Made by a program: the position numbers and the translations under genes
Shown: positions 2,588 to 57,580 of the stretch, piece by piece
Position numbering within the stretch: position 1 is the stretch's first letter
How the letters are laid out: every line of letters starts with the position of its first letter
Notes under the pieces: model-generated
The model's database searches: none
Told to the model about the DNA's origin: nothing
The model's input: the letters and a program-made list of their open reading frames with translations, nothing else
Assembly (NCBI GenBank): GCA_963741515.1
Contig: CAVUIA010000004.1
Location: 67-64,066 of the forward strand
Origin: an uncultured bacterium
GTDB taxonomy: Bacteria > Desulfobacterota > Deferrimicrobia > Deferrimicrobiales > Deferrimicrobiaceae
Reading direction: 5' to 3'
DNA: 64,000 nt

Positions 2588-4060
2588 ATGGACGCACGCC
2601 GCCAACGCGCCACGCTGCAACGGATTGCCCGCCTTGCGATGCTCGAACGCGGCATGCTGCCGGATTTCTCCGCCGGGGCGCTGGAAGAACTTGCCCGGAT
2701 GACGGACCCTCAGAAGGGCGGGAACGGCAAGGTCGCGGATCTTCGGAACCTCCCTTGGGCTTCGATCGACAACGACGACTCCCGCGACCTGGACCAGCTC
2801 ACCGTCGCGGAGACTCTTCCGGGCGGTCGAGATCGAAGATCCGCGTCGCCGTCGCCGACGTGGACGCCCTCGTGAAAAAAGGCTCGGCGATCGACGAGCA
2901 CGCGCGGCAGAACACCACCTCGGTCTATACCGCGGCGGAGATCTTCCCGATGCTCCCCGAGAAGCTGTCGACCGATCTCACGTCGCTGGACTTCCAGGAA
3001 GACCGCCCGGCCATCGTCATCGAGATGCTGATCGGCGAGGACGGCTCGCTTCGCGGGTCGGACATCTACGGGGCGACGGTCCGCAACCAGGCGAAGCTGG
3101 CCTACAACGGCGTGGCGGCCTGGCTGGAGGGGACAGGGGCCGATGCCGGAGCCGATCGCGGCTGTCGAGGGGCTCGACGATGAACCTCAGGGCCCAGGAC
3201 CTCGTCGGCGCAGAAGCTGCAAGTTGTTCCGGCACGAGCACGGGGCGCTGGACCTGGAAACGATCGAGGCGCGTCCGGTATTCGACGACGACGAGATCCG
3301 GGATCTCCAGGTCGAAAGGAAAAACCGGGCCAAGGACCTCATCGAGGATTTCATGATCGCGGCGAACGGGGTGACGGCGCGCTTCCTCATGGCGCCGGAA
3401 ATTTCCCTCCCTGCGGCGGGTGGTCCGTTCCCCGGAACGATGGGAGCGGATCGTCGAGGTGGCCTCCCAGTACGATGTTCATCTTCCGGCGGAGCCCGAC
3501 GCGGTGGCGCTGGCGAATTTCCTGGCTCTCCGCAAGGCCGCCGACCCTCTCCGCTTCCCCGATCTCTCCCTCACGTCATCAAGCTGCTGGGGCGCGGGGA
3601 ATACGTCGTCGAATTTCCGGAAGAGGTCGCCCTCGGGCACTTCGGGCTCGCGGTCCGGGACTACACGCACTCCACCGCCCCGAACCGCCGCTACCCCGAC
3701 CTCATCACCCAACGGCTGCTGAAGGCCGCGCTGTCGGGATCCTCTCAGCCCTACGGAAGGGAGGAACTTGCGGAGCTGGCCCGCCACTGCACCTTGAAGG
3801 AAAACGACGCGGACAAGGTGGAACGGCAGGTCGGGAAGTCGGCGGCGGCCATGCTGCTCGAATCGAGGATCGGGGAACAGTTCGACGCGATCGTCACCGG
3901 CGCCTCGGAAAAAGGGACATGGGTCCGTCTTCTGCACCCCCCCGTGGAGGGAAAGCTGATCCACGGGTTCGAAGGCGCCGACGTGGGCCACCAGGTCCGC
4001 GTGCAGCTGGTCCACACGAACGTCGATCGGGGGTACATCGACTTCAAGAAGGTCGGCTGA
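2588..4060 (+). CDS. RNase II/R-family 3'-5' exoribonuclease (RNB + S1 domains); frame broken at least 4 times
   Basis: RNB catalytic motif IDNDDSRDLDQ and HFGLAVRDYTHSTAPNRRYPDLITQRLLKA, plus a C-terminal S1-like domain. The protein is spread over ORFs 2264-2875, 2389-3183, 3143-4060 and 3420-3722 in different frames. Confidence 0.6.
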
Positions 4061-4261
4061 CCGGTCCACCCGGAACTTGATCGCTTCGACCGGATCGGGC
4101 AGGTCGAGCGGATAGTGTTTCCGCTCGTAGGCCTCGAGCAGCGTGACGAGAACATCGAGCCGATCGCCTTTAGCGGTGTTCGGAGCGGCGTCTATGAGGG
4201 ACTCGATTTCCTTCAGCGTCCGGCGGTAGTCCGTCTTGGTCCGGACGGGTTTGATTTTCAT
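4059..4261 (-). pseudogene. higA: higA-like antitoxin, N-terminal part only; the HTH domain is missing
   Basis: MKIKPVRTKTDYRRTLKEIESLIDAAPNTAKGDRLDVLVTLLEAYERKHYPLDLPDPVEAIKF matches the HigA-family N-terminal region. A GGGAGG RBS sits 13 nt after the higB stop. HigA similarity ends exactly where the convergent RNase II gene stops (TGA at 4058-4060). Confidence 0.55.
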
Positions 4262-4275
4262 GGCTTTTCCTCCCT

Positions 4276-4578
4276 TCACACCGTTTGCGCGTCGATCTCG
4301 TCGTACTCCGCATATGTCCCGATGAACCGGATAAAGACGACCCGGTACGGGTAATTGATCCATGCGACGATCCGAAACTTGTTCCCGGCGATGTTGAAGA
4401 CCACCCTTCCGCCCTTAAGAAAACTGGCTTTCGCGAAGTCGGCCTTCACGTCCGCCGGGGAGGCCTAGTCCGCCTTCAATACATGCCGGTACCACGACAG
4501 GGTCGGTTCGCGGGCATCCATGTTCGACGAGTCATCCTCCCAGACCTTTTTCAGCGTTGAAAGGGCGATGACCCGCAT
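4276..4578 (-). pseudogene. higB: HigB/RelE-family toxin with an in-frame TAG at a conserved Trp codon
   Basis: Translation MRVIALSTLKKVWEDDSSNMDAREPTLSWYRHVLKAD*ASPADVKADFAKASFLKGGRVVFNIAGNKFRIVAWINYPYRVVFIRFIGTYAEYDEIDAQTV. The amber codon is plus-strand cta at 4465-4467. Homologues have W (AEW) at this position. Confidence 0.65.
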
Positions 4579-4688
4579 GAGAGGAGTTAGGTCCCATTTG
4601 GGGACTAACGCAAGTTTTGGGGGAGGCGGTGGGAATCGGGTTCCTCCGGGTTCCATCTTTCCTTCATTGCTGTGGATAAAAATAGCGA

Positions 4689-4719
4689 TTGACTGCAAGT
4701 GAGAACTATTCCTATATTG
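4689..4719 (+). promoter_or_regulatory. putative sigma70-type promoter (TTGACT ... TATATT) with flanking GAACTAT direct repeats, upstream of the Fur-family gene
   Basis: ttgact at 4689-4694 and tatatt at 4714-4719. gaactat occurs at 4703 and 4719. Spacing implies a short or leaderless transcript. Confidence 0.35.
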
Positions 4720-4724
4720 GAACT

Positions 4725-5159
4725 ATGCCGATGGAACGGGGAGAAGCGGAAAAGATCCTGCGCGAGCAGGGAACGAGGGTCACCCCGCAGCGGGTGGCGA
4801 TCCTCCGGGCCGTGGAGAGTTCCGGCAGCCATCCCGACGCCGATGCCGTCTACAGGCAGGTTGCCATGGAGCATCCGCACATCTCGCGGGATACGGTCTA
4901 CCGGACCCTTTCCATGATGGAAGAGAAAAAGATCATCGGGTCGGTCCTGTCCGTCGGGCACTCGAAAAGGTACGACCCGATCACCTCCAGGCACCACCAC
5001 CTGGTCTGCATCCGGTGCAGGAAAATACTGGATTTCAACTCGAAGGAGTTCGACCGCCTGGATCCTCCGGCAAGCATGGTCTCCCGGTTCCAGGTGCTGC
5101 GAACGACCGTGCAGGTGGAAGGATTGTGCGAGGAATGCCGGAACGGAAAGAAGCCGTAG
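4725..5159 (+). CDS. Fur-family transcriptional regulator, likely peroxide-responsive (PerR-like) given the adjacent katG
   Basis: Fur-family fold. HHHLVCIRCRKILDF ... C-x-x-C (CEEC) metal sites. Confidence 0.8.
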   Translation: MPMERGEAEKILREQGTRVTPQRVAILRAVESSGSHPDADAVYRQVAMEHPHISRDTVYRTLSMMEEKKIIGSVLSVGHSKRYDPITSRHHHLVCIRCRKILDFNSKEFDRLDPPASMVSRFQVLRTTVQVEGLCEECRNGKKP

Positions 5160-5249
5160 GAAGGCATATTTTTTTCTTTGCATATAGGAAAGGGTCCGAT
5201 TTAGGTAGGTATCCGATATCCGTTCAAGGAGGTGATTTCGATAAAATGA

Positions 5250-7517
<2,268 letters not shown>

Positions 7518-13075: not shown

Positions 13076-13551
13076 GCCCCATCCTCCTCTTTCCCGGTCC
13101 TCCGGCCGCGCCGGACAGGCTTGACCAACCTCAGCGGAACCCGCGGCGACCCCCTGCGGACGATCTCGTCCAGGCTCAAGGCTTCACAGTAATCCATCAT
13201 CGCCTTTTCGAGGCCGCCCCACACCTCCCGCGCCACGCAAGCCGGGGAGGCCGGACAGCTGCCGGGGTTGTTCGCGCATTTGATGATGTATTGCCCGCCT
13301 TCCAGGGAATCGATGATCTCGCGAAGGGTGATCTCCCCGGGCGAACGGGCCAGGACATATCCGCCGTGCGACCCGCGCGTGGACCGGATCAGGCCGGCGC
13401 CCCGAAGAGGGATGACCAGCTTGGAGAGATATTTCTCCGAAATGTTCTGGTTCCTGGCGATCTCGTTCAAAAAGACCGGCTTCCCGTCGGTATGCTTCGC
13501 CAATTCGATGAGAAGGCGGAGCCCGTACCGGCTGCGCGTCGATATCTTCAT
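13072..13551 (-). CDS. Rrf2-family transcriptional regulator (IscR-like, C-x6-C-x5-C), embedded in the metA-cysK-metY operon
   Basis: [19 protein letters not shown] ... [14 protein letters not shown]. The stop overlaps the cysK start as ATGA. Confidence 0.85.
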
Positions 13552-14516
13552 GACCTGTCGTTTCTCGGCGCGCGCCGACGCTCCAGCTTGGCGTTCGACA
13601 CGGGAATCTGGCTCAGGTCGAAGGGCGTCTTCTGGTACACCGAATAATTGAGCCAGTTCGAATACAGGAGATGCGCGTGGGAGCGCCAGCCCATCTCCGG
13701 CTCCTTCGAGGGGTCGTCGCCCGGGAAATAACCGGCCGGCGGGGCGATCGGGAGGCCCTTGCCCCTGTCCCGGTCGAATTCCGACTTGAGGGTGAGGCGG
13801 TCGTATTCCGGGTGGCCGAACACGAAGATCATCCTCTCGTCCGTCGACGAAACCATGTACACCCCGGCCGTATCCGAAACGGCCAGCATCTTGAGCCCCG
13901 GATTCCTGCGGATATCGCTTTCCAATACCTCCGTGTTCCGCGAATGCGGCGCCAGGAAGGAATCGTCGAATCCGCGCAGGATCGGCTCGAGCGGCTCGAG
14001 CACCTTGTGGCGGAACAGGCCGGACATCTTGGCTTCCAGCGGCCGCTTGGGAATCCCGTAATGATGGTAAAGACCGGCCTGGGCGCCCCAGCAGATGTGG
14101 AGCGTCGACCAGACGTTGGTCCGGCTCCAGTCCATGAGGCGGACGAGTTCCGGCCAGTAATCCACCTCCTCGAAGGGAAGGGTCTCCACCGGCGCCCCGG
14201 TGACGATCAGGCCGTCGAAACGCTCGTCCAGGACCTGTTCGAAGGGGGCGTAGAAGGCTTCCAGGTGCGCGGCCGAGGTGTTCTTCGACGCATGGCTGCC
14301 CATGCGGATCAGGCGGATTTCCACCTGCAGCGGGGTGTTTCCAAGGAGGCGGAGCAGCTGGGTCTCGGTGGCGATCTTGGTGGGCATGAGGTTGAGCACG
14401 GCGATCCGCAGCGGCCGGATGTCCTGGTGGACCGCGCGTTCGTCGATCATCACGAAGATATTCTCTTCTTCGAGCGTCCTGCGGGCGGGAAGGTCGTTCG
14501 GAATGCGTACGGGCAT
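13548..14516 (-). CDS. metA: homoserine O-acyltransferase MetA
   Basis: [23 protein letters not shown]... is the classic MetA N-terminus. GGAGGA RBS. The stop overlaps the Rrf2 start. Confidence 0.85.
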
Positions 14517-14701
14517 TTTGTCCTCCTCGCGATACACTACCAAAACGGTTGCAATAGTGTCAAGCCGCGACATCCTCTCGCGGCGGCGATTCGCTCCCTG
14601 CTCGATGGTGCGAAACACCCGGCGCTCGCCGGCGTCGCTCTTGCGGGGTTGCCCTGCCCGGGCGAGGCGGCCGACGCGTAATTCATACTTAATATATAGA
14701 G

Positions 14702-14737: not shown

Positions 14738-14863
14738 TTAACCCCATTCTCTCGGGTATATCCGGACGATTATTTTTTCATTAAAAACAGGAGCTTCTGT
14801 TTCGACGTGCGACGAGTCATCCTCCCAGAACTTCTTCAGCGTTGAAAGGGCGATGACCGGCAT
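14738..14863 (-). pseudogene. higB-like toxin 5' fragment; the first ~19 codons are homologous to higB at 4578, then the ORF runs into AT-rich DNA
   Basis: MPVIALSTLKKFWEDDSSHVETEAP... compared with MRVIALSTLKKVWEDDSSNMDAREP. About 60 nt are about 85% identical at DNA level to 4522-4586. Confidence 0.55.
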
Positions 14864-14929
14864 GAGAAGCTGTAAGGTTTTTGTCGGTATGGCGACGAAT
14901 CAGAAAACGCACTCCTGGAGGTCACGAAA

Positions 14930-29342: not shown

Positions 29343-30038
29343 TCAACCGTCGCTCCCGGGTTTCGATTTTGTCTTTTCGACGCGCGTGGCGGCCGCGATG
29401 TAAACCGTGGCCAGGATGAAGATGATATAGGCCTGCACCATTCCGGTGAGCAGGCCGAGCGCCGTCATGACGATCGGAAATACGAACGGCGTTATGGCCA
29501 GCAGGATCCCGATGATCATCGCCCCGCTCATCATGTTTCCGAACAGACGCACGGCCAGCGCCAGCGTGCGGGAGAATTCGCTGATGATATGGAACGGCAG
29601 CATGATGAACGTCGGACGTATATAGGACTTGAGGTAGTTGCCCAGACCGCCTTCCGAGATGCCGAACAGCGGCACGGCAACGAACACGCACAGCGCCAAT
29701 GCCGCCGTGGTCGAGAGCGATCCCGTCGGAGGCTCGTAGCCGGGAAAGATGGTGCAGAGGGCCGCAAGGGCGACGAACAGGAAGAGCGTACCCAAAAAGG
29801 GGATAAATTTCCTCGGGTGGCGGAGACCCACTTCCGCGGTTTGCTCCTCGATCATGGAGACGATGACTTCCAGCAGGTTCTGCCAGCGGGAACGCTTGAG
29901 ACCGGTGGACAGTTTTCTCGTAATGAGCATCGAGCCGACGACCAGGACGAGCATCAGCGCCCAGGTGAAGACGATGGTGGCGTTGATCTTGAAAAACCCG
30001 TGTTGCCAGAAGATGATCTCGTCTGGGCTAAGGCGCAC
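29343..30038 (-). CDS. atpB: N-ATPase a subunit
   Basis: Five or six TM helices with the conserved Arg in ...ALAVRLFGNMMSG... Confidence 0.85.
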   Translation of the reverse strand: MRLSPDEIIFWQHGFFKINATIVFTWALMLVLVVGSMLITRKLSTGLKRSRWQNLLEVIVSMIEEQTAEVGLRHPRKFIPFLGTLFLFVALAALCTIFPGYEPPTGSLSTTAALALCVFVAVPLFGISEGGLGNYLKSYIRPTFIMLPFHIISEFSRTLALAVRLFGNMMSGAMIIGILLAITPFVFPIVMTALGLLTGMVQAYIIFILATVYIAAATRVEKTKSKPGSDG

Positions 30039-30354
30039 AACCGACCCCCTTCTCCGGGAGGTTACGGCGTCCGACCGGCGGTCCGGTCAGCCGCGTCACG
30101 AGGACACGCGCGATGGCGAACCCCACCAGACACGCCAGCAGGCGCGTCCAATGTCCGCGCCCGACGTAATAGAAACCGGCCAGGGCGATTCCCATCCGCA
30201 GCAACAGGCTGCAGGAGAACCAGACCGCCGGCTGCCTGGACGAAACGCCTTTCCGCACCGTCCACCACAGTCCGCCGAAGAACATTGCGCCGAGCAGAAG
30301 GCCCGCCGCCAGGACCGCCGCCAGGATCACCGTCTCACTCATCTCCCGCGTCAT
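30028..30354 (-). CDS. atpR: N-ATPase accessory membrane protein AtpR
   Basis: About 100 aa, 3 TM, GGLWWTV motif and an intramembrane Arg. Its position between atpQ and atpB is diagnostic of N-ATPase operons. Confidence 0.7.
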   Translation of the reverse strand: MTREMSETVILAAVLAAGLLLGAMFFGGLWWTVRKGVSSRQPAVWFSCSLLLRMGIALAGFYYVGRGHWTRLLACLVGFAIARVLVTRLTGPPVGRRNLPEKGVGCAP

Positions 30355-30671
30355 CCTCCCGTTCGTCCCGCATGGCCTTGTCTTCCCGGGTCACCCAATA
30401 CCACGCATTCCAGCACCCGATCGCGAGGCCGGCGATCAGCAGCGCCAGCGTCCAGGAGCGGGCCCCCGGGTAGCGCCGGTCCAGCCAGACCCCGAGCGCC
30501 GTCCCAAGAAGCGCCGGAACCGCCACCGACCAGCCGACCAGGCCGATCATGCCCAGGCCGAACCAGACGGTCCGCGTGACATGCCGGCGCGCGCGAATCT
30601 TGCGCGCCGCCTTTTTCCCGACCTCCTTGCCGAGAAGCGGCCCCGGCATCCCCGGCTTTTTTTCGGGTCCG

Positions 30672-30679
<8 letters not shown>
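30335..30679 (-). CDS. atpQ: N-ATPase accessory membrane protein AtpQ (AtpZ/AtpI-like)
   Basis: 114 aa, 2 TM, basic N-terminus. Follows epsilon. Confidence 0.65.
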
Positions 30680-32712
<2,033 letters not shown>

Positions 32713-33594: not shown

Positions 33595-33682
33595 CCCCCC
33601 GCCTCCACCAAGCGCAAAAAAAAGCCGACCATCTCGAATTGAGAGGTCGGCTTACTCGACTGCGCTTGGTGGAGGCGGGGGG
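33595..33682. repeat. perfect 21-bp inverted repeat (CCCCCCGCCTCCACCAAGCGC) formed by the ssrA 3' end and an inverted copy, flanking the ssrA terminator hairpin
   Basis: 33595-33615 is the exact reverse complement of 33662-33682. The 46-bp spacer contains the terminator. Confidence 0.7.
33616..33661 (-). terminator. rho-independent terminator of ssrA
   Basis: Minus strand reads GCCGACC-loop-GGUCGGC followed by U8. Confidence 0.7.
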
Positions 33683-34017
33683 AGTCGAACCCCCGTCCGA
33701 GAATTCTAGCTAAGGGCTACTACGTGCGTTTCCGGTCATTTGGATCTCGTCGTCGGGGACCCCGGCCGGCAGGGTTCCCGTCTGACCATCCCGGCTTGAA
33801 TTTCGCCTTACGGCCCCCCGGGAGGGAGCTTGGGGCTATCCCGTAACGGTGACCCCCTTGCGCTTATACGGGCATTCAGCGGTCGGAGGCAGGCAGCTAA
33901 GCTGCCTGAGCTAACGGATAGTCGTTGGCGACTATTGGTTTCCCGTTTTTACGAGGTTCAGGGCCTCGGCACGCAACCCAGAAGCGTCGACATCCCCGTC
34001 GAAACCGTTTCGCCCCC
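33667..34017 (-). ncRNA. ssrA: tmRNA (SsrA); predicted tag peptide ANDYPLAQAA
   Basis: 5' end GGGGGCGAAACGGTTTCGACGGGG. 3' end GGACGGGGGTTCGACTCCCCCCGCCTCCACCA. Tag reading frame gcc aac gac tat ccg tta gct cag gca gct tag. smpB is adjacent. Confidence 0.85.
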
Positions 34018-51649: not shown

Positions 51650-53137
51650 TGGAGCACTCCTCTTCCTTGAGCGTTTCCATGAAGACCCGGACCATCTCCG
51701 GGTCGAACTGGCTTCCCGCGCAGCGGTTCAGCTCCGCGATCGCATCCTCGCAGGTGCGCGCTTTCCTGTAGGGGCGGTGCGACGTCATGGCGTCGTACGT
51801 GTCGGCGACGGCGAGGATCCGCGCGATGGGCGGGATCTCCTCCCGCGCGATGCCGTCGGGATAGCCCGTGCCGTCGAACCGCTCGTGGTGGTGCCGGATC
51901 ACCTTCCGTTCCTTGTCGAAGAAGCGGATCGGCTTGACGATCTCGTCGCCGATGGACGAGTGGAGCCGGATCTCCTGCATCTCCCCGTCCGTCAGGCCGC
52001 CCGGCTTGAGGAGCACCGTGTCGCGGACCCCGATCTTCCCGATGTCGTGCAGGTACCCGCCGAACCGGAGCGTGTCGATCTCGTCGGAGGCCAGGCCCAT
52101 CGTCTCCGCGATCCGGAGCGCGTACATCGTGACCCTCTCGGAGTGCTCCTTGGTGTAGGAGTCCCGCACCCCGATCGTCGTGATCAGGCTTTTGAGCGTC
52201 GCGACGATGTTGTTGAAGAAGACCTCGTACAGCGCGTTGTTCTCGATCTTGGAGGAGATCTTCTTGGCCAGGTTGATCGCGATGAAGACCTCTTCCTCGG
52301 TGAAGGCGGTGCCGTCGGCCTTGCCGGAGAGGTTCAGGATGCCGAACACGTCGTTCCCGACCAGGAAGGGGATCGCCAGGAGCTGGGACATCAGCGGGAT
52401 GCCGGTGTACGGGTTCGGCTTCCCCACGTCGATGACGTGGTGCTTCCTCCCGCCGAGGACGGCGTCGAAGAAGGGACCCGTCGACCTGGAAGGACGCCTG
52501 CCCGATGCCGACGGCCGACCGGACCGTCAGCCGCCCCCCCTCGATGATGCCGAAGGACACCTCCTGGACCGCGAGCAGCTTCGCGGCCATCTCGGCGACC
52601 CGCGCGTAGATCTCCTTGTTGTCGTGGCACCGGTCCACTTCGGGCTGATCGAGTGGAGGGACGCCGATCTCCTGCAGCCTCTTGAACAGCTCGGCGTTCA
52701 GTCTCTTCAGGGAGTCGTCGGACCCCTGCGTCGACGCGAGCCGGCCGTACAGCTTCCATTCCCCGAGGACCCGCTCCGTGGTGGAAACGATCTTGTCCAG
52801 CGTGAACGGCTTGGTGATGAAATCGGACGCCCCTTTCCGCATCGCGCGACACGGCGATCTCCATCGAGGAGACGCCCGTGAGGACGATGACGGGCACGGA
52901 CGAATCCATTTCCTTGCTCTTCCGGAGGAAATCCATCCCGTTCATGCGGGGCATCGTCAAATCGGTGAAGATGACGTCGTACCGGTTGGACCGGATCTTC
53001 TCGAGCCCTTCCATGCCGTCGGCGGCCACGTCCGTGTCGTAATTCCCGATCTCGGTCAGCACCTGGGAAAGAAGCTCCCTGACGCCCGGATCGTCGTCGA
53101 CGATGAGGATCCGGCCTTTCCTTTCCGTTTCAAACAT
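51630..53137 (-). CDS. response regulator with REC - GAF-like - HD-GYP phosphodiesterase domains; frame broken twice (near 52850 and 52470)
   Basis: REC ILIVDDDPGVRELL...DVIFTDLTMPRMNG. HD-GYP HHERFDGTGYP. The pieces lie in ORFs 52391-53137, 51502-52842 and 51630-52427. Confidence 0.7.
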
Positions 53138-53194
53138 CTACCTGCCCCCGCGCGCCGTCCGGAAATATGTCAAATCACCTTCATTACTTCGGAA

Positions 53195-53252
53195 GAAAAC
53201 GGGGAAAACATTAGGGGATTGTTGCGATCGGAAACGGGAAAACAAGGGGAGG
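53195..53252. repeat. two purine-rich direct repeats (GAAAACGGGGAAAACAttAGGGGA / GAAACGGGAAAACAAGGGGAGG) in the leader of the HD-GYP operon
   Basis: Read directly from the sequence. Pyrimidine-rich on the coding strand. Confidence 0.5.
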
Positions 53253-53333
53253 TGCGAACCGCGGATACACCTTTACTGTCCGCCGGATAACCGGCGTTTT
53301 CGAACCGGAGCGGGGAACGACCCGGACCTGTCC

Positions 53334-53564
53334 CTAGGTCCCGGTCTTGATGCGGCTCAGGACGGCGTTCTTCGTCTCTTCCATGATCTTCTGGCGTTTC
53401 GCTTCCGCCGAAAGAGTCACGACGTCCTTGAGGTCCGCGGTTTCCGGCTCCGTCTCCACCGACAGGTCCCTGCTCTTCAGGACCCTGTGGTAAAGATTGG
53501 TTACCTCCCCGATTTGAAAGGGGAATACCGTCATCTGCCTAACCTCCGTGTTCGGCAGCACCAA
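53334..53564 (-). CDS. hypothetical 76-aa protein (weak FlgM-like V-x-L-S-x-x-A motif)
   Basis: ...DVVTLSAEAKRQKIMEE... Too short and too divergent for a firm call. Confidence 0.3.
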   Translation of the reverse strand: MVLPNTEVRQMTVFPFQIGEVTNLYHRVLKSRDLSVETEPETADLKDVVTLSAEAKRQKIMEETKNAVLSRIKTGT

Positions 53565-53639
53565 CTTGCCTTGACTGTACTTATCGGATGGTTCTGCGAA
53601 TACTTAAGCGGGGGGGGGCTTTTAACCGGGAGGAAGCGA

Positions 53640-54115
53640 TTTTTTTCAGCCGGAGGCGAGGCGGTCCCGGACGGCCTCGAACTCCTTCTTCCCTTCCCCG
53701 AGGAGGGGGGAGAGCTCGTACTGGATCAGGTCGGCCAGGGAGATCCAGTCCTTCCTTTCCATGGCCGCCTGCATTTCCCGGAACAGGTCGAGTGGACTTG
53801 TCGAGGGAGGAGAAGGCCTCCGCGGGAACGGGCTGGGACGCCAGGTGGGCGATTCCTTTCCGGATCTCCTGCACGAGGGCGATGAGGTCGCCGAGATTGG
53901 TGACCCCCACCGAGAGCACCGAGAAGGTTTCGTTCGACGGGTCGACCCGGAGCCGCTTCGAGCAGTCGAGGAGCCCGGCGTCGATTTCCCCGACGACCGA
54001 GATCGCGGCTATCGACCCCTTCCCGGATCCTTGCAAGCAGCTCGACCTGTCGCGGATCGTCGTTCCCCATCGCGTCCCTCCCGGTAATGGATGGATCAAG
54101 TATTGCACGAACCAT
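53640..54115 (-). CDS. hypothetical protein of about 150 aa spread over three frames
   Basis: Protein-like segments MVRAILDPSITGRDAMGNDDPRQVELLARIREG / IDAGLLDCSKRLRVDPSNETFSVLSVGVTNLGDLIALVQEIRKGIAHLA / LDLFREMQAAMERKDWISLADLIQYELSPLLGEGKKEFEAVRDRLASG*. Confidence 0.35.
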
Positions 54116-55808
54116 GCTGCGCTTTCACCTGCTTTTCGACCAGGCGTTCGATCGTTTCCGCCAGCATGGAAAAATGGCTTTTCAGGTCGGAGTAGAGCCC
54201 GAGGGCGGTTTCCGCCATCGGCGCGAGCTCCTTCCCCTCGAGCGCCTCCTTCCCGAACCCGAACAGGACGACCGGAGGCATCAGCGGGGGGTGGGTGCGC
54301 CCCAGCGTCTCGATCTCCCGGTCGATGACGGGGACGTCCTTCCACGTCCGGCGGATCCATTCCGCGTCCGGGGAGGGCTTCGCGGCCTCGCGGGCGATCA
54401 GGGAAACCCTCGTGAGGGCCTCCCCCGCGAGCGCCTCCATCCTCCGCAGGGTCGCGAGGTCGTCGCCGATCTCCCCGAGGATCCTTTCCAGCTCCCCCTC
54501 CCCGTGCCAGGCGGCCGCCTTGGCCTCGATCGTCCCGCACGCCTCTCCGACCGAAAATCCCGACTCCCCGTCCAGAATGCGCGGCCACGTCTCCCGGTAA
54601 AGGTACGTGTAGAACGTCTCCCGGGACAGGGAGCGGCGGATGAGGGGAACGTAGTCCTGCAGGCCGTCCCGCGCGAACCCGGAGCGGAAGACCCGGACCC
54701 CGCTCCATACCGGGCCGTCGTCGAGAGCGTCGACGCCGCCCTTCTCCAGGATCCGGCACCCGAGCTCGAACACGCTGTCGGCCGTGATCATCTCCTTGCA
54801 ACGCGGGTCCGTGCACTTCACGTGGAACCCGCACGGGCCGCAGGGGATGTCCGCCTCGATCACGTAGTGCCCCTCCCCGTACGGCCCGGTCTCCCGGAAG
54901 CAGACGTGTCCCAGCGACACGTCGATGGCGGGCGTGCCGACCGCCGTCGCGATGTGCAGGGGCCCCGTATCGTTCGTGACGAGGAGCGCGCACCGGTTCA
55001 GGAGCGCGGCGGCCCCCCGCAGGTCGGTCTTCCCGATGAGGTTGACCGCCTTCGTTCGGCGGCCAGCGATTCGAACTTCTTCCCGAGCTCCGCCTCCGAC
55101 CCGGATCCCGTTGAGCACGATGCGGGCGCCCAGGTCTTTCGCGAACCGGTCCGCGAGCCGCGCGAAGGAGGCCGCCGGCCAGGTCTTCACGTCGTCGCTC
55201 GCCCCGAGCTGGAAGCCGATGACCAGGTCGTCCCCGGCGACCCCGTGTTCCGCGAGAACCGCGTGCGCCTTCCCGCGTTCCTCGTCCGATACCGACAGGT
55301 GGAGCCCCTCGCCCGAAGGCGGGATGCCCGCGGCCTTGACCATCATGTCGCAGAGGTGGAAGGGGTTGTACCGGCGGGACGGGATCACGTTCATGAAGTA
55401 CCGCTGCCAGGGATGCTTGATGATCCGGGACCCGTCGGCGCCCGCGGTCACGCCCCGGATCTCCCGCGCGCGGAACAGCGAGGTCAGGAGCGCGCTCTCC
55501 CCCGACGGCGTGAAGTTGATCGCGAGGTCGTATTCGGTGTCGTTCACGCCGTCGATGAACGCTTCAAGGCGCCGGTAGCAGTCGACGAGGGAGTGCTCCT
55601 CCTCCCGGAACATTTTCCGGAACGCGACCTTGTCGTACGTCAGGAGCCGGTCGATGAACGGAAGGTCCTTGCAGATCTCCTTGAATTCCGAGCTCACGAG
55701 GAGGGTGATCCTGGCCGCGGGATACGACTTTTTCAGCCCCGCCATCACCGGTGTCGTCTGGATGAGGTCCCCCATCCGGGTCAGGTTGACGAGCAGGATC
55801 TCCTTCAT
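54096..55808 (-). CDS. glycosyltransferase family 9 (heptosyltransferase-like) with a C-terminal extension of about 220 aa
   Basis: MKEILLVNLTRMGDLIQTTPVMAGLKK GT9 N-terminus ...LLVTNDTGPLHIATAVGTPAI... The ORF reads in-frame from the upstream CgeB-like gene, so a fusion or a missed shift is possible. Confidence 0.7.
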   Translation of the reverse strand: MKEILLVNLTRMGDLIQTTPVMAGLKKSYPAARITLLVSSEFKEICKDLPFIDRLLTYDKVAFRKMFREEEHSLVDCYRRLEAFIDGVNDTEYDLAINFTPSGESALLTSLFRAREIRGVTAGADGSRIIKHPWQRYFMNVIPSRRYNPFHLCDMMVKAAGIPPSGEGLHLSVSDEERGKAHAVLAEHGVAGDDLVIGFQLGASDDVKTWPAASFARLADRFAKDLGARIVLNGIRVGGGAREEVRIAGRRTKAVNLIGKTDLRGAAALLNRCALLVTNDTGPLHIATAVGTPAIDVSLGHVCFRETGPYGEGHYVIEADIPCGPCGFHVKCTDPRCKEMITADSVFELGCRILEKGGVDALDDGPVWSGVRVFRSGFARDGLQDYVPLIRRSLSRETFYTYLYRETWPRILDGESGFSVGEACGTIEAKAAAWHGEGELERILGEIGDDLATLRRMEALAGEALTRVSLIAREAAKPSPDAEWIRRTWKDVPVIDREIETLGRTHPPLMPPVVLFGFGKEALEGKELAPMAETALGLYSDLKSHFSMLAETIERLVEKQVKAQHGSCNT

Positions 55809-55949
55809 CTCCCCGCCGCTCATCCGCCGATCGCCTTCATCGCGAGGAAGATCCTCTCGACGCGGGTGAGGTCTCCGCTGCCCGACCCGATCTCCCGGGT
55901 GATGTCCGCGAGCTTCAAGCTCCGCGCGCCCGCGAAGCGCGAAAGGTAT

Positions 55950-57580
55950 TTCCCGAGCTCCGTGTCCGGTCCCGCCTGCCCGACGAGGCGACCGGGGTCT
56001 TCCCGTTCCCGCATCTCCTGCCACGGAGGCCGGAATCCGGATCCGGATCAGGAAACCGATCATCTCCTCCATCCGGCGCTCGTAGGTGTGGTCCCGAAGG
56101 ACCCGCTGCCGCCCCCTCTCGGCGACCGCCTTCCTCTCCTCCGGGTCCGCGAGGTAACGGGCGATCTTGGCGCGAAGGTCGGCGAGGCTGTCGAAGCACG
56201 CAACCTCTTCCCCGATCCGGAAGAAATCGGACAGCCCCGAGCCGGAGGTCCACGAGCTGGAACCCGCCGCACGCCGCGATCTCGAACGTCCGGGGGTTCA
56301 CGAAATCGCCGTCGGGGTTCACCCCCTCGTGGTAGCTCGAGGAGTGGAGGTTGATGTTGATCCGGGAGGCGTTGAAGATCTTCACGATGTCGTCCGTGTC
56401 GACCCGGGCGCCGTCGCGCTGGAGGAACCCGCGGAGGGCGGGGCACGACCCCCACTCGTTCCCCCAGATCCGGAAGTCGAGGTCGACCAACCCCTCGAAG
56501 AGCCGGCGCCGGTTGTAGTACCCCGCGCCGACGAAGGAGACGTCGCCGCCGAATTCCTCGAGCTCGCCGGGGGACAGCTCCGACCTTCCGGTGGACCTCG
56601 GGAGATGCGGCCATCGGGAGGAAGGCGACGTTCCTCGCGCCGGCCTCCCGGAGCCGTTCGAGGAAACCGCCCTCCTGGATCGCGAAGAAATAATCGTATT
56701 TCGAGGCGGTGTCCCGCCAGTACCCCATGTGCCGGAAATCCTCCACGAACCAGAAAACGGTGGCGATCCGCCGCTCCCGCAGGACGGCGAGGGCCGACTC
56801 CAGGAACGGCGCCTGGGCCAGGACCAGGACGATGTCGGGGCGGAACGGGACGATCCGCGCCATCGCGGCCTCGGAGGCGAACTCGCCGAACTTCATCCTC
56901 AGGATGTCCCGGTGCGGCGCGCTATCCGTGATCTTGTCGATCGAGAGGAACGTCTCCCCGAAGACGCCGTTGTCGATGAATTCCACCTCGTGCCCCAGGT
57001 TCCGCAGGGCGGAGGCGCAGTAGCCGGCGACGGGAAGCGACCCGCCGTGGAACGGACCGACCACGGCGATCCTCAAGCCCCGCGCCGCGGCGTGGAGGGC
57101 TTCCAGCCGGAGAGCGGCTTTTTCGAAGACGGCCGGGTCGAGCCGGACCGACGGCGCGTGGCGCAGGATCCCGAACGGACCGGCGGGCGCCGGGGCCGCA
57201 AGGTCGTCGCAGTCGGCGGCGATCCGCGCCCTGGCAAGGATCGGCGACAGGTCCCGGGCCTCCAGGGCGGTCCGGAGGATGTCGACCCTGGGCTCGAACA
57301 CCGTCGACCGGCTTGTCCGTTTCGCGCAGAAGCTCCTCGACGTGGTACCCGAGCCCGAACCCGAAGACCGCGATCGACGACGAGGATTCGATGTCGTCGC
57401 GGTAGTGCTCCACCCAATCCCGCGCTTCCCGCACCGGGTCGTAGACGCTGTGGAGCGCCGCGTCGCCGACTTTAAGGGACGGGGGCCCCGCCTTCGAAGG
57501 GACGACGCAAGGCCGGCGCCGCGTTCCGCGTTCCGGACGCGTTCCGCCAGCCGCCCGTCGACGGCCTCGAGCCCCCTCAT
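55950..57580 (-). CDS. CgeB-like (DUF3880 + GT1-like) glycosyltransferase with a Maf-like N-terminal domain (copy 1); at least 3 frame shifts
   Basis: N-terminus MRGLEAVDG...LHSVYDPVREARDWVEHYRDDIESSSSIAVFGFGLGYHVEEL. Middle ...RIAVVGPFHGGSLPVAGYCASALRNLGHEVEFID... C-terminus IVKIFNASRININLH...VNPRTFEIAACGGFQLVD...RVLRDHTYERRMEEM. Confidence 0.6.

Follow-up and report, generated by a model that had tools for sequence, protein, structure and literature searches.

A locus on the minus strand close to the start of the window (the whole 64,000-nt stretch of DNA analyzed here) is very probably the remnant of a chromosomal HigB-HigA operon (a type II toxin-antitoxin module) of the Escherichia coli K-12 YgjN/YgjM type, no longer functional and in decay. 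The evidence comes from the toxin gene, from what is left of the antitoxin gene, from the promoter upstream of both, and from an intact copy at the same place in a close relative.

The toxin gene higB carries an amber codon and further substitutions

The higB pseudogene comprises 100 codons at positions 4276 to 4578 of the minus strand (ATG at 4578-4576 and TGA at 4278-4276) and belongs to the HigB_toxin family, PF09907. With W38 restored, its product matched the Pfam profile with E = 1.3e-28 and 99.5 bits (cut-off, 27) over profile positions 3 to 74 of 74, while an NCBIfam profile search returned no match for HigB. Translation of the minus strand gives MRVIALSTLKKVWEDDSSNMDAREPTLSWYRHVLKAD, a stop, and then ASPADVK and onward to IGTYAEYDEIDAQTV. 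This stop is the only one in frame, and no frameshift is present. It is a TAG that replaces TGG (Trp) at codon 38 (4467-4465, minus strand; CTA at 4465-4467 of the plus strand), which confirmed by translation the amber codon reported in an earlier annotation made from the DNA letters alone (here, the sequence-only reading).

That reading had further held that the TAG sits at a conserved Trp and had called for an alignment of homologues to establish this. A search of approximately 5.8 billion proteins (clustered) returned 4112 HigB homologues at E ≤ 1e-5, and 109 close ones were aligned; Trp occupies position 38 in every one of the 109. The surrounding motif is KADW, not AEW as had been given. 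Codon 38 is TGG in 83 of 83 related loci readable in register (L086, which is out of register, was left out of this count) and also in L100 and L101, the two same-locus relatives described below. Since TGG was found in every related locus read, the TAG is a single G-to-A substitution, and the TGG-to-TAG change that had been proposed is upheld.

The best HigB homologues are intact proteins of 100 aa that are 81 to 90% identical to the window HigB, and a full-length HigB more than 90% identical to the window allele was absent from the 5.8 billion clustered proteins. At the nucleotide level, window higB is 92% identical to that of L001. When changes were called against the nearest relatives (L001, L100, and P0121-P0124), seven proved specific to the window, namely, F12V, H19N, W38 to stop, V53F, Y68F, Y82F, and H89Y, four of which affect sites with conservation of at least 98%. 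On the sister branch, that of L001, three HigB changes are found, every one at a variable site.

The description of the reading frame as intact apart from the TAG is thus accurate with regard to other stops and frameshifts, of which there are none, but not with regard to near-invariant residues. Three of these are altered on the minus strand: Y68F at 4377-4375 (TAC to TTT; Tyr in 107 of 109 homologues), Y82F at 4335-4333 (TAT to TTT; Tyr in 108 of 109), and H89Y at 4314-4312 (CAT to TAT; His in 108 of 109). In alignment, the counterpart of HigB H89 in the E. coli K-12 protein is H88, which lies within the conserved C-terminal THxEYD strand. In HigB of Proteus vulgaris, which belongs to an unrelated family, His54, Asp90, Tyr91, and His92 are crucial to catalysis (PMC5027501). 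By analogy with this requirement for C-terminal His and Tyr residues, H89Y probably inactivates HigB by itself. The TAG, for its part, would yield a product of 37 residues, lacking entirely the beta-sheet core, which, as aligned to E. coli HigB, comes after this point.

A functional member of the family should have an uninterrupted open reading frame (ORF) of about 100 codons with the conserved residues, which in this subfamily are W38, Y68, Y82, and H89. The window copy has instead a TAG at codon 38 together with F68, F82, and Y89 and is therefore a pseudogene of the family rather than a functional member. The dN/dS ratio of higB against L100 is 0.21 (from small counts), which is not neutral and so places the inactivation in the recent past.

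The antitoxin gene higA stops at a deletion junction

In the window, higB lies immediately upstream of its cognate higA, with the layout and spacing of the relatives: the higA start codon (ATG at 4261, minus strand) is 14 nt past the higB stop codon and is preceded by a Shine-Dalgarno sequence, AGGGAGG, at 4275-4269. Intact HigA in related loci is 124 aa long. Homology in the window ends at codon 67 of 124, at approximately position 4063, as the sequence-only reading had anticipated in calling the antitoxin truncated. The remnant at 4061 to 4261 (minus strand) comprises codons 1 to 67, corresponding to the N-terminal domain, and tblastn coverage is confined to residues 1 to 67; NCBIfam profiles gave a sub-threshold match only for HigA.

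In intact relatives, the helix-turn-helix (HTH) is detected as a weak HTH_3 match over residues 61 to 112 (E = 3.6e-4, below the Pfam cut-off), and intact HigA aligns to E. coli HigA (PDB 5IFG and 5YCL) over residues 27 to 110, including the HTH region. The HTH of E. coli HigA is C-terminal (PMC7984235). Because homology stops at codon 67, the DNA-binding region is gone from the window save for its first few residues, and the retained residues 1 to 67 do not make up the HTH antitoxin of a HigBA operon.

The deletion junction was placed at 4058 to 4066, with blastn end points at 4063 and 4065, and is no more than about 5 nt from the point where a convergent RNase II-type gene ends (stop codon at 4058-4060, plus strand); the RNase_II_C_S1 domain of that gene is complete to one residue before the stop. 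Past the junction, the ORF of the higA remnant continues for approximately 190 codons antisense to the RNase II-type gene, an extension that we regard as an artifact of high GC content. Ahead of the junction, HigA residues 1 to 67 have acquired conservative changes only on the window branch (I6V, A10T, and M23I), and dN/dS of this N-terminal part against L100 is 0.68, above that of most neighboring genes.

A conserved promoter and putative operator of the subfamily are degraded in the window

The window was first aligned with three close loci. For the survey of higB promoters, 83 loci from metagenomes and metagenome-assembled genomes (MAGs) were inspected, with position counts taken over 71, and 82 distinct upstream regions were drawn from 85 loci (L001-L003, L020-L099, L100, and L101). 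The subfamily has a near-invariant promoter with a putative operator, with the consensus TTGC-N3-tAGTCCCA-N3-TGGGACTAnnnT-N5-7-ATG. In this layout, a −35-like TTGC is followed by a 17-nt spacer that holds a 7-3-7 inverted repeat (AGTCCCA-N3-TGGGACT), and the −10 hexamer, TAnnnT, starts at the last base of the right arm of the repeat. Of the 82 upstream regions, 62 carry a perfect repeat, 15 a repeat with one mismatch, and 5 a repeat with two, and TAnnnT is present in all 82 (with one locus re-anchored). The higB start codon lies 5 to 7 nt past the −10 box in 77 of the 82, a gap too short for a ribosome-binding site; a leaderless mRNA is predicted from this spacing, and intact higB genes of the subfamily are probably transcribed in that form.

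We considered and rejected an RNA hairpin as the role of the inverted repeat, as variants in its arms are non-compensatory; for the same reason, the repeat behaves as a binding site for a dimeric protein rather than as an RNA stem. By analogy with E. coli HigBA, the C-terminal HTH of HigA presumably binds the inverted repeat and thereby represses the higB promoter, and the consensus predicts a single HigA dimer site overlapping the −10 box.

The corresponding promoter-operator in the window is located at 4584 to 4613 of the minus strand, with the −35 element TTGCGT at 4613-4608, the repeat at 4606-4590, and a remnant of the −10 box at 4590-4585. It reads TTGCGT-T-AGTCCCc-AAA-TGGGACcTAACT. Its inverted repeat, AGTCCCc-AAA-TGGGACc (mutated bases in lower case), has two arm mismatches, and TAnnnT is absent: the −10 remnant is cTAACT where relatives carry TATACT or TATGCT. 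Position A(−5), at the inner end of the left arm, is A in 68 of 71 loci and never C, and is C here; also broken are T(+5) and A(+6), the start of the −10 box, each of which is found in 71 of the 71 loci counted. Written out as operators, the intact type is AGTCCCAAAATGGGACT, as against the window variant, AGTCCCCAAATGGGACC.

The sequence-only reading had pointed to a near-palindrome upstream of higB as a plausible autoregulatory operator. The palindrome is real, a judgment made from conservation across loci rather than from chance statistics, and its core recurs in 82 related loci; the 24-nt element itself (GTTAGGTCCCATTTGGGGACTAAC) occurs once in the window, at 4586-4609 (plus strand), 7 nt from the 4593-4616 to which it had been assigned. 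The operator idea was right in kind, but the conserved element is the 7-3-7 repeat fused to the −10 box, and the window holds a mutated copy of it. Mutational destruction of the −10 box accounts in part for the outer GTTAG/CTAAC complementarity of the 24-mer. A generic sigma-70 scan found no higB promoter in the window, although such a scan would also miss the TTGCnn −35 element of the intact relatives.

An intact copy occupies the same locus in close relatives

Among the members of the protein cluster of the best match, P0001, we reached L100, a MAG labeled "Deltaproteobacteria bacterium" (GCA_014860285.1). It shares 93 to 95% nucleotide identity with the window over katG and the genes beyond and about 88% over fur-higBA (86 to 88% when L101, described below, is included), and its gene order is that of the window, katG-fur with higB-higA divergent. 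Its higB is intact, with TGG at codon 38 and with Y68, Y82, and H89, and is preceded by a perfect operator and a TATGCT −10 box. A second locus of this type, L101, a short Logan contig (SRR12686319), shows a complete higA of 124 aa.

The window therefore shares with L100 and L101 the genomic position, divergent from fur-katG, and the promoter layout, whereas the window alone has the seven HigB changes, the mutated operator and −10 box, the deletion of higA past codon 67, and a 52-nt insertion at 4620 to 4671 between the back-to-back fur and higB promoters. More distant relatives from a Fur-anchored genome scan (MAGs of the Candidatus Deferrimicrobia/CSP1-8 type) have no higBA beside fur. Given an intact copy at the same place in L100, the module was present in the common ancestor with the window, and decay took place in the window lineage only. 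The proposal that the module was disabled by toxin knockout, already made in the sequence-only reading, is reinforced by this copy as well as by the additional HigB substitutions and the losses from the −10 box and operator.

Relation to characterized HigB-HigA systems

The closest characterized system is HigB-HigA of E. coli K-12 (YgjN/YgjM; PDB 5IFG, 5YCL, and 6KML), in which the toxin likewise belongs to PF09907 and the toxin gene comes first. As in the present subfamily, its HigA consists of an N-terminal domain and a C-terminal HTH of the XRE type. The similarity between the two is distant only (phmmer E about 1e-4), E. coli HigB has Phe where the subfamily has Trp38, and the window copy, unlike the E. 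coli system, is a pseudogene. The E. coli higBA promoter is autoregulated, being repressed by HigA (PMC2814082). Its inverted repeat is of the 9-3-9 form (CCGTTGCCA-ATC-TGGCAACGG) and abuts the −10 box, compared with 7-3-7 in the subfamily; both have a 3-bp spacer, and the half-site sequences differ. In addition, E. coli higB has a 5' untranslated region that measures about 35 nt and holds a second imperfect repeat, whereas the subfamily has a single repeat and is apparently leaderless.

HigB-HigA of P. vulgaris/Rts1 also has its toxin gene first and encodes a ribosome-dependent mRNase of the RelE superfamily, but its HigB falls in a Pfam family other than PF09907 and its HigA has an N-terminal HTH (PMC7984235). 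The searches run gave no sequence match between HigBA of the window and that of P. vulgaris/Rts1.

Could the amber codon be a sequencing or assembly error?

The TAG might have arisen by error in a noisy (probably long-read) metagenome assembly, in which case the true codon would be TGG and the toxin ORF would be open. We consider this unlikely. Base-level accuracy is not beyond doubt, as neighboring genes bear isolated single-nucleotide insertions that resemble consensus errors: compared with L100, L011, L013, and L006, three additional single nucleotides are present in katG, and yet its dN/dS is normal and its corrected frame is free of stops, while in the RNase II-type gene, the RNB domain is distributed over several frames. 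The locus of a related MAG, L015, is likewise frameshifted in katG. These nearby errors are, however, all indels, whereas an error at 4466 would be a substitution, and the stretch from higB through the N-terminal part of higA has zero indels against either L001 or L100.

A second source of sequence also argues against error. Downstream of the TAG, a 57-aa ORF with a GTG start runs from 4449 to 4276 (minus strand), and its product is recorded both from a 128-kb NCBI/ENA contig, presumably that of the window itself, and from a separate 930-nt Logan contig of run ERR12035938. The Logan contig carries exactly this C-terminal ORF, confirming F68, F82, and Y89, and shows it flanked, at the expected distances, by fur on the upstream side and by the start of higA on the downstream side. 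A gene caller would take the 100-codon ORF were codon 38 TGG, so the 57-aa call implies a stop upstream; most likely, then, the ERR12035938 contig carries the TAG too, as judged from the gene call and with the proviso that the run may not be independent of the window assembly. The N-terminal HigB fragment of 37 aa has no entry in the protein collection, and exact-sequence queries likewise gave no record of Fur (with any of three start codons), of a neighboring protein of 264 aa, or of the frameshifted fragment of KatG.

Restoring TGG would, moreover, leave the HTH of HigA missing, the −10 box broken, and H89Y, Y68F, and Y82F in place. With the HTH deletion, the promoter damage, and these three residue changes combined, the module would be non-functional whichever base stands at 4466.

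Could the remnant have been retained, or the amber codon be read?

The remnant might instead have been kept for a function, with the N-terminal part of HigA serving as an orphan, "anti-addiction" antitoxin against a paralogous or incoming HigB and with the toxin deliberately silenced. This seems to us highly unlikely. Little credence likewise attaches to its more detailed form, in which HigA residues 1 to 67 would not bind DNA and would be expressed by read-through or cryptic transcription, the amber codon and the active-site changes having silenced the toxin. Codons 1 to 67 of higA are indeed intact, with a strong Shine-Dalgarno sequence and conservative changes only, and if the HTH is C-terminal as in HigA of E. 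coli, the retained part would be the toxin-binding part. The genome also once held at least one more copy of higB, represented by a relic elsewhere in the window. This relic (MPVIALSTLKKFWEDDSSH; 14807 to 14867, minus strand) is 61 nt long, consists of 4 nt upstream of the start and codons 1 to 19, and is 96.7% identical to L001 and 93.4% identical to the first copy. Its operator/promoter and the rest of the gene are absent, and it lies just upstream of the AT-rich promoter region of a metA-like gene (13548-14618), which suggests a second higBA copy that was almost wholly deleted.

Against retention, the sole recognizable promoter is without its −10 box, the antisense extension of about 190 codons would give the HigA product an unnatural tail, the dN/dS of 0.68 for the N-terminal part of higA exceeds that of most neighboring genes, and the window holds no intact higB partner. 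A separate proposal, more likely to be true than an orphan antitoxin, is that members of this HigBA subfamily have in common a fixed architecture that had gone unremarked, namely, a single 7-3-7 operator fused to the −10 box and a leaderless higB.

Translation of the amber codon by a suppressor tRNA or by natural read-through, which the sequence-only reading had offered as its alternative and which would supply a low level of full-length HigB as a regulated or attenuated toxin, is extremely improbable: the higB ORF is free of further stops and frameshifts, higA retains both start codon and Shine-Dalgarno sequence, and the genome beyond the window might encode a suppressor tRNA, but TAG is an ordinary stop in the window, the invariant −10 bases of the higB promoter are mutated, the HTH of the cognate repressor HigA is deleted, and suppression would leave unrepaired the changes H89Y, Y68F, and Y82F at near-invariant sites. 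Of 41 coding-like ORFs in the window, about 10 (roughly a quarter) terminate in TAG, among them the adjacent fur, whose length matches that in L005 and L100, and suppression on a general scale is accordingly unlikely. The 64-kb window contains no tRNA genes. We know of no genetic code that assigns Trp to TAG, and genome-wide recoding of TAG was rejected on the stop-codon usage of the window. Translation through the TAG is needed by nothing at the locus.

Other features of the window

Several features lie beside the locus. The fur promoter (4689-4731, plus strand) has the form TTGACT-18-TATATT and ends 6 nt before the fur ATG (4725), and this spacing makes fur, too, appear leaderless. Overlapping the −10 box of fur is a short inverted repeat, TTCCTATATTGGAA, which is conserved in L100 and L101; it may be a candidate autoregulatory site of the Fur/PerR type. 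Between fur and katG, an AT-richer insertion of 166 nt is present at 5141-5306, at a junction where the genes of L100 overlap by 4 nt and those of L004 are separated by about 27 nt.

In the catalase-peroxidase gene katG (5322-7514, plus strand), single bases are inserted at 6272, 6814, and 7347, outside any long homopolymer. As the corrected frame has no stop in 731 codons and a dN/dS of 0.24 against L100, these insertions reflect either very recent pseudogenization or errors in the assembly consensus. In the RNase II-type gene (approximately 2636-4060, plus strand; RNB plus RNase_II_C_S1), the frame shifts about four times, near 2812, 3132, 3409, and 3574, through either error or decay. Further frameshifts are possible at 52400-57500 (minus strand), where, ahead of an HD-domain ORF, a response-regulator receiver domain breaks off at position 86 of the 111-position profile and, in a glycosyltransferase cluster, a DUF3880/Glyco_trans_1_2 pair is split over two frames.

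The idea that the whole window is riddled with frameshifts was rejected, since Pfam shows the ATPase, dNK/KsgA/TsaD, and other clusters as intact, separate genes; many "frameshift" calls of a codon-usage Viterbi analysis were dismissed as noise within continuous ORFs, and the middle of the window looks clean of frameshifts. An N-type ATPase operon (29343-31157, minus strand) encodes AtpR, ATPase_gene1, subunit a, and epsilon, and its genes appear intact. The sole Rfam match and the sole ARAGORN match in the window is a tmRNA gene (33667-34017, minus strand) with the tag ANDYPLAQAA.

Order of decay and implications

In an intact module of this subfamily, a sigma-70-type promoter (TTGC-N17-TAnnnT) would drive higB and then higA, and the N-terminal domain of HigA would neutralize HigB. 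In the window lineage, the TGG-to-TAG change at codon 38 would have knocked out the toxin, with Y68F, Y82F, and H89Y adding to the damage; a deletion reaching the stop codon of the RNase II-type gene would have removed the 3' half of higA, which encodes the HTH, and invariant bases would have been lost from the operator and the −10 box. Loss of antitoxin function from a type II module cannot precede the disabling of the toxin or of its expression. For this reason, we place the nonsense codon, H89Y, or the −10 mutation first, which would have been followed by the 3' deletion of higA and by drift. Toxin-antitoxin modules turn over fast, and knockout of the toxin followed by decay of antitoxin and promoter is the expected route.

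As an ordinary pseudogenized toxin-antitoxin module, the locus carries little weight in itself, and its in-frame TAG is not to be taken as a sign that this uncultured lineage has reassigned a stop codon or uses programmed suppression. Its analysis yielded two by-products. One is an example of decay by steps, datable by comparison with the intact copy that a relative of about 94% identity carries at this locus. The other is an operator-promoter consensus for a large HigBA subfamily, which predicts the HigA binding site and leaderless translation of the toxin.
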